Shown piece by piece: positions 3,191 through 17,480 of a DNA stretch of 64,000 nucleotides. Every line of letters begins with the position of its first letter. The first letter of the stretch is position 1. Under the pieces are notes generated by a model that made no database searches, had not been told where the DNA came from, and worked only from the letters and a program-made list of their open reading frames with translations. The translations under genes and the position numbers were made by a program. This DNA comes from an uncultured Acidimicrobiaceae bacterium (GTDB taxonomy: Bacteria; Actinomycetota; Acidimicrobiia; Acidimicrobiales; RAAP-2): positions 32,228 through 96,227 of the forward strand of contig CAWFPP010000012.1 in NCBI GenBank assembly GCA_963817735.1. Reading direction: 5' to 3'.

Positions 3191-3245
3191 CAGTCAGATT
3201 TGACTGACTGCCTCCGTTCGCTGCCGGGACGGTGGGGCAGTTCGG
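3191..3245 (+). repeat. Hairpin-tail repeat R4
   Basis: CAGTCAGatttgaCTGACTGCCTCCGTTCGCTGCCGGGACGGTGGGGCAGTTCGG. The tail is nearly identical to R18. Confidence 0.7.
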
Positions 3246-3934: not shown

Positions 3935-3972
3935 GGGGTATCCCCGTTCGATCCTCGCTGCCGGCTCAGGGA
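3935..3972 (+). repeat. Hairpin-tail repeat R6
   Basis: GGGGtatCCCCGTTCGATCCTCGCTGCCGGCTCAGGGA. Shares the ATCCTCGCTGCCGGCTC variant with R15. Confidence 0.65.
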
Positions 3973-6746: not shown

Positions 6747-6813
6747 GGGGTGCCCTGCCCCCGTTCGCTGCCGGATATGGGTTCCCGGTGCTCACCATTC
6801 GGGCAGCGGTCAC
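6747..6813 (+). repeat. Hairpin-tail repeat R11 with an inverted partial partner
   Basis: GGGGtgccctgCCCCCGTTCGCTGCCGGATATGGG, followed 20 nt later by CGGGCAGCGGTCAC, the reverse complement of the CGCTGCCCG core. Confidence 0.65.
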
Positions 6814-9040: not shown

Positions 9041-10024
9041 ATGGGGCTCCGCTTCTTAGGCCAAGGCAGGCTTGGGATTCTCTTTGCCGCCATGACTGCC
9101 TGCGTCTCCGCTACTTGCGTCAGCCCCCCGGCCGGCGCCCAACAGGCCGAGCCAGCGAGCATTCCGACGACGGCCACATTGGTCTACAACAAAGATTTCC
9201 CCGATCCGAGCATTCTCGTGGTAGGCCACACATACTTCGCGTACTCCACCAACTCCGACGGTGAGAACGTTCCCCTCATAGAGTCGAACGACCTTTTGCA
9301 TTGGCACGCGATCGGCGACGTCATGTCCGTCCTACCGTTATGGGCGAGCGAAGGCTATATCTGGTCGCCATCCGTGAGCCGTGCGCCGGGTGGCGGCTAC
9401 CAGCTCTTCTTCAGTTCCTACGACGAGTCACAAGGTGTCATGTGTCTCGGCCGCTCGACTTCGAGGTCACCGTTCGGACCTTTCGTCGACGTGAGTGGAG
9501 TGCCCTTCTTGTGCCAAGTGAGTGCCGGAGGTTCGATCGATCCCTCCGTCTATCGCTCCGAGGGAGCTGACTACCTCGTTTGGAAAGCTGATGGCGAGGG
9601 TAGACAACCACAGGCGATACTTTCTGCGCGCCTCACTTCCGACGATTCCGAGCTCGTCGGCCAGCCGGATACGCTGCTCAGCGCGAACTTAAGCTGGGAA
9701 GATGGAGTGGTCGAACGCCCCGCGTTCACGGATGCATCCGGGGTCTTGCATCTGTACTTCAGTGCAGGGCATTGGTCGAGTGCGGACTACGCCATAGGAA
9801 ACACCACCTGTTCAACCCCGTTGGGACCCTGTGCAGATAGTGCCTCCCTGCCCGTAACGATCTCATCGAGCGTTGCTACGGGGGCAGGTAGCCCAACGTT
9901 CTTCGTGGCTGACGATCAATCCTACCTAGCGTTCTCCGCTTGGACGAACGGAATCGTTGGCAATGAATTCGGTCATCGAGCTTTGTTCTTGATGAAGATT
10001 GGTGGCGATCAGGTCGCGACATGA
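9041..10024 (+). CDS. Secreted glycoside hydrolase family 43-like (five-bladed beta-propeller)
   Basis: Signal peptide, then DFPDPSILVVGHTYFAYSTN, WSPSV, GSIDPSVY and VERPAF blocks typical of GH43. Confidence 0.75.
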   Translation: MGLRFLGQGRLGILFAAMTACVSATCVSPPAGAQQAEPASIPTTATLVYNKDFPDPSILVVGHTYFAYSTNSDGENVPLIESNDLLHWHAIGDVMSVLPLWASEGYIWSPSVSRAPGGGYQLFFSSYDESQGVMCLGRSTSRSPFGPFVDVSGVPFLCQVSAGGSIDPSVYRSEGADYLVWKADGEGRQPQAILSARLTSDDSELVGQPDTLLSANLSWEDGVVERPAFTDASGVLHLYFSAGHWSSADYAIGNTTCSTPLGPCADSASLPVTISSSVATGAGSPTFFVADDQSYLAFSAWTNGIVGNEFGHRALFLMKIGGDQVAT

Positions 10025-10112
10025 GGACCGTGTCGGAGCGAGCTGCGAGCTCGGGAGGAAGTCTTCAGGATCTTGAAGTGGTGTCCATGGATCCTTTCTG
10101 GGGAAGGTTGTT

Positions 10113-10154
10113 CCATTAGGCCGAAGTGCTCCACACCCCACCTGCCCCAGAACG
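10113..10154 (-). repeat. Hairpin-tail repeat R14, the only inverted copy, flush with the IS110 3' end
   Basis: The minus strand reads CGTTCTGGGGCAGGTGGGGTGTGGAGCACTTCGGCCTAATGG. This aligns with the R4 tail plus its 3' flank, 3217-3260 (CGTTCGCTGCCGGGACGGTGGGGCAGTTCGGCACTTGCGGGCTAAGG). Confidence 0.55.
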
Positions 10155-11473
10155 ATGCTCCTATGGTTTGTCAAGGGCGAATTCTGATCTCGGGAGCGCA
10201 GCGAATACCTCGCGAGCGACGTAGCGCTTGAGGCAGCGAATCGCCTCCTTTGGTTCGACCATCCTTCATCCGACGCTCGATGTAGTGCTTGGTCCTCGGG
10301 TCGTTGACCATGCGGGTGAACACGATGTGCCACAGGGCAGAGTTGGCTTGGCGATCGCCACCGCGGTTGAGACGATGGCGCTCCTGCTTGCCGCTCGAGG
10401 CGTCGAGCGGGGAGACGCCGCAGAGCTTGGCGAAGGTCGCCTCGTTCTTCAGGCGCTCGGGGTTGTCCCCGGCGGCCACCAAGAGGGCCGACGCCACGTC
10501 GGTGCCCACCCCGTCGATGGCCCTGAGCTCGGGAGCGGTCTCGGCCACGAGGGTCTTCAAGATGCGGTCGATCTCTTTGACCTCCCCTTCGAGGGCGAGG
10601 GCCCGGCGGGCCAGCATGCGCAGGGTGAGCTTGGTGACACCCGTGACGTCGGTCCTTCCGGTGTGGCGATACACGCTGGCCAGTTCGAGGACTTTGTAGA
10701 TGGAGAGGTCACGCAGTTCGGCGCGCAGTTCGTCGGGAGCGGTCGAGATCAGGCTGCGCATCTGGTTGATGGCCTGGGTCCGGCTGCGCCGGGCCGAGCT
10801 GCGAGCGACGCGTAAAACCCGCATGGCCTCGACGTTTCCGGTCCTGGTCTTGGCCGATCCGTTGGCATCTCCACCTTGGGCGGCCCGGGCGGCCGAGACG
10901 GCGTCAAGGGTGTCGGACTTGCCTTGGCGCCGGCGCTTTTGGCGGTTGGGCCGATCCACTTCGACTACTGCCACCCCGCGGCGGTGCAGGTGGCGCGTCA
11001 GCCCGGCCCCGTAGCTGCCGGTCCCTTCGACCCCGATGAGCTCAAGGGTCCCGAAGCTTTGCAACCAGGCCAAAAGTGCCTCGTACCCCCTGGGCGTGGT
11101 GGCAAAGCTCTCGGTCCCTAGCAGCGCTCCTCGTTCGTCGAGCGCGGCCGCCACATGGACGTCGAGATGCGTGTCGACCCCTCCGGTGATCGTGCGCGCG
11201 ATAGTGGTCATTGTCATCTGTTCCTTTCGCTTGGGGTGGGTGGCACCGCACGGCCGGAACGATGGACAGGACAGCGAAGGGCCTGTGAAGGCAGGCTCCT
11301 ATGAGGTCACTCCGTCCGACCGGTTGGCGTCGGGTGAGTGTCCGAGCCGGGCCGACGGATCGTCTTGAGGACAGTCCCGAGGGACGTCAGTCGGACTTGC
11401 ATTGGGTCAGACCTGGCTCGGGCACACACCCACACGCTGACCAGTTCTGCCTCTGCAGTGGTGGACCGTCAGC
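10155..11473 (-). mobile_element. IS110-family insertion sequence (approximate ends)
   Basis: Transposase plus about 255 nt of non-coding 5' region (11218-11473) and almost no 3' non-coding region. Flanked by repeat R14 (inverted) and repeat R15. No terminal inverted repeats seen, as expected for IS110. Ends are inferred from where the flanking repeats begin. Confidence 0.55.
10171..11217 (-). CDS. IS110 family transposase (DEDD/RuvC-like N-terminal domain plus Transposase_20 domain); 3' end apparently frameshifted
   Basis: GGVDTHLDVHVAAALD...IGVEGTGSYG... and GVGTDVASALLVAAGDNPERLKNEATFAKLCGVSPLDASSGKQERHRLNRGGDRQANSALW are IS110 hallmarks. The canonical C-terminus AIRCLKRYVAREVFAAL is encoded in the adjacent frame from about 10245 and stops at 10161. 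Confidence 0.9.
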   Translation of the reverse strand: MTMTTIARTITGGVDTHLDVHVAAALDERGALLGTESFATTPRGYEALLAWLQSFGTLELIGVEGTGSYGAGLTRHLHRRGVAVVEVDRPNRQKRRRQGKSDTLDAVSAARAAQGGDANGSAKTRTGNVEAMRVLRVARSSARRSRTQAINQMRSLISTAPDELRAELRDLSIYKVLELASVYRHTGRTDVTGVTKLTLRMLARRALALEGEVKEIDRILKTLVAETAPELRAIDGVGTDVASALLVAAGDNPERLKNEATFAKLCGVSPLDASSGKQERHRLNRGGDRQANSALWHIVFTRMVNDPRTKHYIERRMKDGRTKGGDSLPQALRRSRGIRCAPEIRIRP

Positions 11474-11505
11474 GGGCTGCGTCAATCCTCGCTGCCGGCT
11501 CGCGG
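11474..11505 (+). repeat. Hairpin-tail repeat R15, adjacent to the IS110 5' end
   Basis: GGGctgCGTCAATCCTCGCTGCCGGCTCGCGG. Confidence 0.55.
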
Positions 11506-11516
11506 CGACATAGCTC

Positions 11517-12635
11517 ATGAAACCGTGGCTGTCAGAAGGCTCAATGAGGCGCCTAATACCCCCTGTTCTCATCGTTGTATTGGCGTCAGTGACGATCGGA
11601 GCCGCCCTCATCGGCCAGAGCGAGAGCCCAGGGACTGGCGGAAATCCAGAGGCTCAGGCGACCTTGAACAACGCGGTCCACAAGACACTCGCAGGCGAGA
11701 GTGTGACCATGAGTCTGGGTCAGGGCTTCACGGTTGTCTACGAAGCCCCAGATCTCACGGAAACCGCGATGCCGTTTAACGGCGTGACGATCCAGGATGG
11801 TTCACACACGTTGACGAAAGGATTCGGCCAATGGTTCGAAGATCTGCCTTCTGGGTACGTGCCGGGGCCCTACGCGGCCCTCTTTTCACCTTCGCAGGTC
11901 CTCGGACGGCTGCTCCATCTACCCGACCTCGAGGTCAAGGGTGCCCAGACGTTCGTGTCCAAACGCGTTCTTGCGCCCACCAGGAAAGTTCACAGCACCG
12001 TCACCGTCATCGAGACAGTGCACACAGCTGATGGATTCATTGTCAGCGTCCGCACCACTTATCGAAACGCCCCGCCGATTCCCGTGGCTACTTGTGGCAA
12101 CTGTCAAGGCGAAGCATTTGCTACACCTCTTGCGAGCAGCACCGCGGTCACGTTTGGTGGCTTCAATTCATGGCACGTATCGATCCCTGCCTCGGACGAA
12201 ATCGTGACCCGCACGACCGTGGCCACACAGAAGATAGGCCATGACCGCCTTGCCGTGTACGAATGGGCGTCTGGGGGATCCTCGGGTACGACCACCGGAT
12301 TCAGTCTGACGAATGAACTGGGTAGCCCGATCGACGGCGGTAGCGGGGGCCCCACGGGAGCCCCGATATCGGGACCGGACGGTCTCTTTCCTGAGGGAGG
12401 GGGTTCAAGCGGTCCGGGGTCCTGGGGCGACGTCACGGTGTCGGTGTCGGGTAGCGACGTCACCAGCGTGAGACTGGTCGTGGGCGCCCTAACCGTTGAT
12501 GTCATGGTCCCCGCGAAAGTCGGTTCCAGTCGATTCGTGATTCTCCTCGCCAGGGTGCCAAAGGAAGGAGAAACTTCGATCCAAGGGCTCAATTCGTCCA
12601 ACCAGGTGGCCACATCGACTCCCTACAGCTGGTGA
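11517..12635 (+). CDS. Hypothetical secreted protein
   Basis: N-terminal anchor or signal sequence (RRLIPPVLIVVLASVTIGAALIG), a Gly/Ser-rich segment, coding-like third-position GC. 4-nt overlap with the next gene. The true start may be Met at 11544. Confidence 0.5.
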   Translation: MKPWLSEGSMRRLIPPVLIVVLASVTIGAALIGQSESPGTGGNPEAQATLNNAVHKTLAGESVTMSLGQGFTVVYEAPDLTETAMPFNGVTIQDGSHTLTKGFGQWFEDLPSGYVPGPYAALFSPSQVLGRLLHLPDLEVKGAQTFVSKRVLAPTRKVHSTVTVIETVHTADGFIVSVRTTYRNAPPIPVATCGNCQGEAFATPLASSTAVTFGGFNSWHVSIPASDEIVTRTTVATQKIGHDRLAVYEWASGGSSGTTTGFSLTNELGSPIDGGSGGPTGAPISGPDGLFPEGGGSSGPGSWGDVTVSVSGSDVTSVRLVVGALTVDVMVPAKVGSSRFVILLARVPKEGETSIQGLNSSNQVATSTPYSW

Positions 12636-14603: not shown

Positions 14604-14645
14604 GGTGCCCCATTTTCGCTGCCGGGACGGTGGGACAGTTCGCAC
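14604..14645 (+). repeat. Hairpin-tail repeat R18
   Basis: GGtgCCCCATTTTCGCTGCCGGGACGGTGGGACAGTTCGCAC. Confidence 0.7.
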
Positions 14646-17444: not shown

Positions 17445-17480
17445 GGGGCGGACCATCCCCGTTCGCTGCCGGGATAGAGG
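17445..17480 (+). repeat. Hairpin-tail repeat R23 (last copy seen)
   Basis: GGGGcggaccatCCCCGTTCGCTGCCGGGATAGAGG. Confidence 0.7.

Follow-up and report, generated by a model that had tools for sequence, protein, structure and literature searches.

IS621 of Escherichia coli is an insertion sequence (IS) for which a bridge RNA mechanism has been established experimentally (Durrant et al. 2024, PMC11208160; Hiraizumi et al. 2024, PMC11208158). The element described here is an IS110-group IS in a 64,000-nucleotide (nt) stretch of DNA from an uncultured Acidimicrobiaceae bacterium (contig CAWFPP010000012.1 of assembly GCA_963817735.1; the whole stretch is called the window below), where it lies at 10155-11494 on the minus strand, as do all of its features given below. 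Two other groups of elements are also relevant. IS110 elements of the ISPpu10/ISPpu9 type insert into repetitive extragenic palindromic (REP) sequences (bioRxiv 10.64898/2026.03.19.712850; Tobes & Pareja 2006, as cited in PMC11208160), and the IS1111-attC group, which has a seekRNA, inserts into recombination-site-like repeats of cassette arrays (Post & Hall 2009, as cited in PMC11208160).

With a probability that we put at about 0.85, the window element is an RNA-guided IS110-group IS whose insertion site is a single unit of a hairpin repeat. Like IS621, it has a recombinase with DEDD and Tnp domains, a long left end and a very short right end, and a leader with a 5' stem-loop followed by two modules of stem, internal loop and hairpin. 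In both systems, the left halves of target and donor are matched in sense by 5' loop strands and their right halves in antisense by 3' strands, each right guide is followed on its 3' side by bases that fit the non-cognate partner (the 'handshake'), and the target is a repeated palindromic element. The differences are that the protein is only distantly related to that of IS621, that the host belongs to the Acidimicrobiaceae and that the element is known here from sequence alone. In addition, its junction dinucleotides are unequal (G-C on the left, T-C on the right), whereas those of IS621 are identical (CT); its target guide, of about 5 + 5 nt, is short, and its right donor guide is one continuous stretch of 8 nt.

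The ISPpu10/ISPpu9-type elements are similar in that an IS110-group element is aimed, in fixed orientation, at a multi-copy intergenic hairpin repeat; the window repeat belongs to another family and is co-oriented and cassette-array-like. The IS1111-attC elements share a DEDD transposase and site-specific insertion into recombination-site-like cassette repeats, but have subterminal inverted repeats and a long right end in which their guide RNA is located, in contrast to the left-end layout of the window element. The element is of a known kind. Our results add a well-populated Acidimicrobiaceae branch to the bridge-RNA elements, with guides, target and one empty site mapped; specific to this case are the lineage, the cassette-array-like hairpin target, the short guides, the unequal junction dinucleotides and some possible scars. 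If our reading is correct, an RNA-guided recombinase reads the hairpin repeats of the cassette-like arrays that these genomes contain, and the combination of short, mismatch-tolerant guides with unequal junction dinucleotides may be of interest for bridge-recombinase engineering.

Element ends and the split target repeat

Relatives of the element were collected in a scan of species-representative genomes, which gave 80 loci, nearly all of them in Acidimicrobiaceae metagenome-assembled genomes (MAGs); two of these loci are ~99% identical copies in another MAG. The full elements number 64, including the window copy and a second copy on contig C13 of its own genome (G000), and all 64 have identical junctions: ..CCGG-CAGCGAGGAT-(variable) on the left and ..C(A/C)TAGGAGCAT-CG-NNN-GGG.. 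on the right. Across insertions, the DNA beyond CCGG on the left and beyond CG-NNN on the right is variable. Insertion is site-specific and has a fixed orientation. A preliminary description of the locus had taken the hairpin-tail repeat as the insertion target and suggested looking at the flanks of other copies; the same repeat-type junctions in 64/64 elements, rather than unrelated flanks, bear out that proposal.

In the window, the left half of the target is CCGG (the left target) at 11495-11498. Homology between independent insertions ends here, and the sequence upstream varies. Public data agree: among Logan short-read contigs of four runs (X1, X2, X11 and X12; two of them from soil DNA, two from rhizosphere RNA libraries), those from other insertions part from the window exactly at 11498. 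The right half, CG-TTC-TGGGGCAGGTGGGG at 10136-10154, consists of the core-proximal CG, the right target and a hairpin arm, and the IS-free form of the repeat is CCGG-CG-NNN-GGGG.

An empty site in related DNA, another suggestion of the preliminary description, was found in one pair, which defines the ends of the element. A window-type element (locus L044) sits in a glycosyltransferase-like gene, of which the window's own genome has two uninterrupted copies (G000 C16/C25) that match the flanks of L044. The occupied sequence is ..ATGCTCGG(CAGCGAGGAT...GGAGCAT)CGTCTTGGAGGG.. and the empty sequence is ..ATGCTCGG/CGTCTTGGAGGG.., where the slash marks the insertion point; an extra codon at this site is absent from all of about 25 orthologues (locus hits in 24 further genomes of the genus, and the second own-genome copy, C25). 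Because the empty site is without both CAG and CGAGGAT, these arrive with the IS. The mobile DNA, as shown by this one empty site, is therefore CAGCGAGGAT...GGAGCAT, 1340 bp inserted between CCGG and CG. In window coordinates it runs over 10155-11494 (CAGCGAGGAT...CCATAGGAGCAT), with the same termini in the 64 elements. A single C is common to both junctions at the crossover, which leaves the boundary ambiguous by 1 nt, and the neighbouring dinucleotides differ between the junctions (G-C left, T-C right). The common sequence at the empty site is thus 0-1 nt, with no multi-base target duplication.

The empty site and the abundant CCGG-CG-NNN-GGGG form agree, so the two flanking repeats that had been listed as R14 and R15 together make up one co-oriented repeat unit, each being half of it. 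The annotation needs correction accordingly. The element had been described as wedged between an inverted and a direct copy, but it sits inside one repeat copy, not between two; R14 (CG-TTC-TGGGGCAGG, 10154-10141), said to be the only inverted copy, is not inverted and is oriented like the neighbouring repeats; and a part of 'R15', the 7 nt CTCGCTG at 11488-11494, is the IS left terminus and not target.

The search for further empty sites is summarized here. An orthologue, in genome G011, of the window's GH43 flank was considered and rejected, as its hairpin is conserved and the downstream DNA differs. At this locus (L116, G011:C24, about 142100-142212) the hairpin is followed by GTAC-ATTGACGCGGGCC; the similarity of this sequence to nt 9-21 of the IS left end, in opposite orientation, may point to a rearranged remnant of the IS. 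For the distant subfamily L091/93/94, the search for empty sites gave occupied sites and chance matches only, and an nhmmer profile of the repeat tail was too weak to separate reconstructed empty sites.

Transposase gene and element layout

The transposase gene occupies 10161-11217. The listed open reading frame (ORF; 10171-11217, 348 aa) had been assigned to the IS110 family in the preliminary description, and both IS110 Pfam domains are found in it: PF01548 (DEDD_Tnp_IS110; 7.8e-21, residues 13-158) and PF02371 (Transposase_20; 1.9e-17, residues 230-313). By eye, D15, E64, D102 and D105 fall in GVDTH, GVEGTG and SDTLDA motifs, and an SSGK motif is present in the C-terminal Tnp domain, its serine being assigned solely from the sequence. 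The NCBIfam equivalog NF033542 ('IS110 family RNA-guided transposase') was scored on an intact 352-aa relative (L026) and gave 181.9 bits, against a cut-off of 140 bits. PDB matches of this relative to the IS621 and ISCro4 transposases are weak (E about 4e-6 for IS621).

The true C-terminus lies in the next frame and ends with a TAG at 10161-10163. This stop codon is inside the IS right end CATAGGAGCAT (10155-10165), which is the left-donor segment, and only 6 nt separate it from the right end of the element. On the other side of the gene, the non-coding left end, our proposed bridge-RNA gene, covers 11218-11494 (277 nt). The preliminary description had noted ~255 nt of 5' non-coding DNA (11218-11473); the non-coding stretch is present but extends further, to 11494. 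A long non-coding left end and a very short right end make up the IS110-group layout described by Durrant et al. With a left end of 277 nt, a right end of 6 nt and a structured, covarying RNA in the left end, the element is of the IS110 group rather than the IS1111 group.

A perfect TTGACA occurs at 10169-10174, in the last transposase codons and 15 nt from the IS right end, and it is conserved in relatives. It is a candidate -35 box for a promoter that would become complete at the circle junction; a -10 box to go with it was not seen.

Fold of the leader

The window leader folds better than its shuffled versions (z = -2.6). A consensus fold was calculated with RNAalifold on 42 distinct leaders and has two modules, in each of which a stem leads through an internal loop to a hairpin. 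Compensatory changes occur in 10 of its 51 pairs. In 500 shuffles the observed structure values were never reached, and pairing drops from 98.6% to 32-52% when the partners are slid.

Module 1 (11332-11431) is the analogue of the target-binding loop. Its basal stem pairs 11406-11431 with 11332-11356, its inner hairpin is at 11368-11392, and compensatory pairs number seven in helix 1 and one in helix 2. Module 2 (11264-11317), the analogue of the donor-binding loop, has a stem of 11306-11317 with 11264-11272 and a hairpin at 11281-11296; its helices 4-6 are almost invariant, with one compensatory pair. Upstream of both modules, a 5' stem-loop at 11441-11464 keeps its pairing between subfamilies while the stem sequence differs; it was read from the alignment by eye and is outside the RNAalifold consensus. 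An Rfam search of 9800-11800 returned chance miRNA-like matches only, from a library without a bridge-RNA family.

Proposed guide segments in the loops

The loops of the two modules can be compared with the DNA on either side of each junction. In module 1, the 3' loop CAAGACGAUCC (11357-11367) contains AGA-CG, the right target guide (RTG), and the following AU matches the ..AT of the IS right end in the manner of a handshake. The NNN-CG of this strand is antisense to the host CG-NNN. In the alignment of flanks and leaders, the three NNN positions (3-5 after the AT of ..GGAGCAT) have their top mutual information with three consecutive, antiparallel leader columns, and the fractions of paired bases are 0.76, 0.98 and 0.60. 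Over 17 RTG types, 3.47 of 4 positions are paired, against 2.40 after permutation, the observed value being reached in 0 of 10000 permutations. Elements with CA in the flank in place of CG (L061, L088 and L091/93/94) have UG in the RNA in place of CG. The 5' strand of the module ends in a segment resembling a left target guide (LTG), at 11390-11394. Its sequence is CCGAC in the window, where all relatives and the short-read contigs have CCGGC, in the same sense as the target CCGG and the next C. It changes to CGGGC in the four elements with the target CGGG (L061, L091/93/94).

Module 2 relates in the same way to the ends of the IS itself. The left donor guide (LDG) CAUAGGAGC at 11295-11303 repeats the IS right end CATAGGAGC (10157-10165) in the same sense; across elements this 5' strand has the form C(A/C)UAGGAGC, and its A/C position covaries with the IS right end (same-sense fraction 1.00). 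The 3' loop CCUUCGCUGUCC (11269-11280), the right donor guide (RDG), is complementary to the left junction GG-CAGCGAGG, with 2 nt reaching into the target GG; its partner in the element is the right-donor segment CAGCGAGG at the IS left terminus (11487-11494). The general form of the RDG, C-N-UCGCUG, is antisense to CAGCGAGG, and two independent variants covary with the DNA: GCAAGG with UUGC (L088) and CAACG with CGUUG (L061/79/81/91/93/94).

It had been suggested from the window alone that the 5' non-coding region could be a bridge-RNA gene, to be examined by folding it and comparing its loops with the flanks. The result is a two-module fold with loops complementary to flanks and ends, and covariation within the structure and between guides and flanks upholds the suggestion.

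Proposed mechanism and alternative readings

By analogy with IS621, the left end would be transcribed, the RNA would bridge the joined IS ends and the target, and the recombinase would exchange strands next to the common C. The left junction would then keep G-C from the target and the right junction T-C from the donor, with the core read as N-C. Read like this (G-C for the target and T-C for the donor), the observed junctions conform to the IS621 top-strand rule; the N-C register is itself an interpretation and not a measurement. Copy-out and top-strand insertion have been argued for the IS110 family in recent preprints. In this register, the predicted circle junction is ...CCATAGGAGCAT-C-AGCGAGGATTGAC..., and the predicted empty allele of the window site, on the plus strand, is ...CTGCCCCAGAACG/CCGGCTCGCGG....

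Several points weigh against this proposal. Contigs from the RNA libraries cover 11213-11498, but may represent DNA carry-over or read-through rather than a defined transcript; no promoter was found, nor a convincing -10 box by eye. Neither a circle junction nor a tandem copy was found, the 43 matches in the metagenome scan all being chance, and the public-run contigs contain no empty-site joint and no circle joint. The single empty site is an atypical, intragenic target. Within the guides, the LDG does not pair to the last base(s) before the crossover, and a search for a consistent partner of the variable 5' loop strand in module 1 gave none, so that a guide role for this strand was rejected. 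Finally, the verdict on the transposase frame given below comes from assembled contigs, not raw reads, and the contig with the A-run is unanchored in the flank of this insertion.

The same element can also be read in other registers. In one, the CG core is duplicated and the target is a 'short form', CCGGCAG-CG-NNN-GGGG; the IS would be AGGAT...GGAGCAT (10155-11489), the module-2 3' loop would read the core and AGG followed by a long handshake to CAG, and the circle junction would be ...GGAGCAT-CG-AGGATTGAC... instead of GGAGCAT-C-AGCGAGGAT. All of the RNA-DNA complementarities fit this register too, the invariant left-junction block CCGGCAGCGAGGAT then has 14 nt in the 7+2+5 layout of IS621, and IS-free short-form repeats exist, with four in the window. 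On the other hand, the sole empty site is without CAG, which is also in none of the about 25 orthologues, and the repeat without CAG is about ten times commoner. Moreover, in elements whose two candidate 'core' dinucleotides are not the same, the left always goes with the donor guide and the right always with the target guide, and we regard this register as unlikely. Another register has an AT core and a 'long form' target, CCGGCAGCGAGG-AT-CG-NNN, with an IS of TGAC...GGAGC. In its favour are nine IS-free long-form sites among 61 genomes of the genus (window 3942-3964 is one of these), a module-1 3' loop NNNCGAUCC that is fully complementary to GGATCGNNN, and the T that is the second core base of IS621. 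This reading is scarcely credible given that the empty site has CAGCGAGGAT arriving with the IS, that GCGAGGAT is missing from the empty member of the one occupied/empty pair, that a guide for the resulting right-donor segment was sought and none found, and that long-form sites are far rarer than occupied sites. Judged from the junctions by themselves, all three registers are allowed; it is the L044 empty site that tells against the CG core of the short form and the AT core of the long form.

A different kind of explanation is that the leader is simply the 5' untranslated region or promoter of the transposase gene, the similarity to the flanks being mimicry between IS ends and target. In line with this, neither a defined transcript nor a promoter was found and no Rfam family matches. 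Against it, the compensatory changes keep the two-module fold, the loop positions covary with flanking host DNA outside the element, and the guide mechanism is established experimentally for IS621 (PMC11208160, PMC11208158); we consider this explanation very improbable.

Integrity of the window copy

The preliminary description had also proposed a 1-nt indel near the C-terminus of the transposase. The neighbouring frame does read the conserved C-terminus, (K)EAIRCLKRYVAREVFAAL..., to the TAG at 10161-10163, but the source of the shift is a 2-nt deficit in an A-run at 10249-10251, which is AAA in the window and AAAAA in L026/L027. Intact relatives read ACC-AAA-AAG-GAG-GCG here. A check of the read support at ~10240-10250 had been proposed, and the evidence does not favour a real lesion: the Logan contigs of all four runs disagree with the window at this place, carrying A5, and the 3-A form is in none of them. 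Run X1 contains the flanks of the window's own insertion without difference, and its contig 8 spans the left junction, differing only at 11391. This position is A in the window, within the otherwise invariant CCGGC, and G in the contigs of all four runs. There are four such single transitions in total between the window (A/T) and the contigs of the four runs (G/C), at 11391, 10339, 10673 and 10966. Together with the A-run deficit, the transitions suggest errors in the assembly consensus. An assembly error is the likely origin of the frameshift, and the window copy is probably intact, with the frameshift and the LTG base change both errors of this kind.

Alternatively, the window copy may be a genuine pseudogene, in which a 2-nt deletion truncates and alters the last ~30 residues and a point mutation affects the LTG. 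Both changes are in the assembled sequence, and the C13 paralogue is frame-broken as well, but with the 3-A form in no contig of the four runs and a G at 11391 in the junction-spanning X1 contig, we find this doubtful.

Repeat arrays and inserts identical to the IS end

The IS-free repeat was counted in the genome by its motif. CCGG-CG-NNN-GGG with an A/T-rich NNN occurs 123 times, compared with 56 in a reversed-sequence control, and forms co-oriented arrays, with 16 sites on C14, seven on C4 and seven in the window's array. Such co-oriented arrays lie at G000 C14:388262-421301, C4:8047-19735, C10:21501-33094 and C13:126937-128308. The CCGG-CG form is also present in many flanks of relatives; an earlier count of further repeats in these flanks used the CAG-bearing motif alone and was thus an undercount.

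Some repeat units contain short inserts that are identical to the beginning of the IS. The IS-free form CCGG-CAG-CG-NNN occurs 13 times in the genome, compared with two in the control, and is concentrated in the window's array. The exact motif TTCGCTGCCGG occurs nine times in the 4.5-Mb genome, four of them in the window, and the other arrays are almost all without CAG. Repeat units of the window with a 3-nt insert are at 2627-2642 (CGG), 3217-3227, 6759-6774, 14615-14625 and 17457-17472 (CAG, the first 3 nt of the IS). A longer version, the IS-free CCGG-CAGCGAGGAT-CG-NNN with the first 10 nt of the IS, is found at nine sites in 61 genomes of the genus and at none in the reversed control; these sites include window 3942-3964, G000 C10:21501-21516 and loci L117-L125. 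For the pattern CCGGCAGCGNNNGGG, the count across the genus equals that of the reversed control and is uninformative.

These inserts are a concrete, testable oddity. One tentative and rather improbable explanation is that they are scars of site-specific excision, in which the recombinase would use an alternative register (CG vs CG, or AT vs AT); both registers are complementary to the guide loops, and repeats of the TTCGCTGCCGG type would then record repeated visits of the IS. If so, a cassette array would be having its recombination-site-like repeats rewritten by an IS110 element. The inserts could instead be repeat variants that are mimicked by the IS end. As to an integron integrase, the 87%-complete genome has no TIGR02249 match above the cut-off.

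Other copies and variants

The C13 paralogue in the window's own genome (L002, G000 C13:19797-21158) is 75% identical to the window element, and its frame is broken mid-gene. A fragment with the left end only, 80% identical, lies at G000 C13:25079-25376, 5 kb from L002 in an IS-rich stretch. About ten further elements in the same genome are of a more distant IS110 type. A second IS110 subfamily (about 65% identical) has copies inside or beside the C4 and C14 repeat arrays.

In one low-depth X1 contig, 10914 is followed directly by 11382, so that 467 nt are skipped (side 26, 4 shared letters); the contig may be an artefact or derive from an internally deleted copy. In the relative L040, 12-14 nt are missing directly after the invariant CAGCGAGGAT and the remaining leader is kept, which would fit with this stretch being dispensable.

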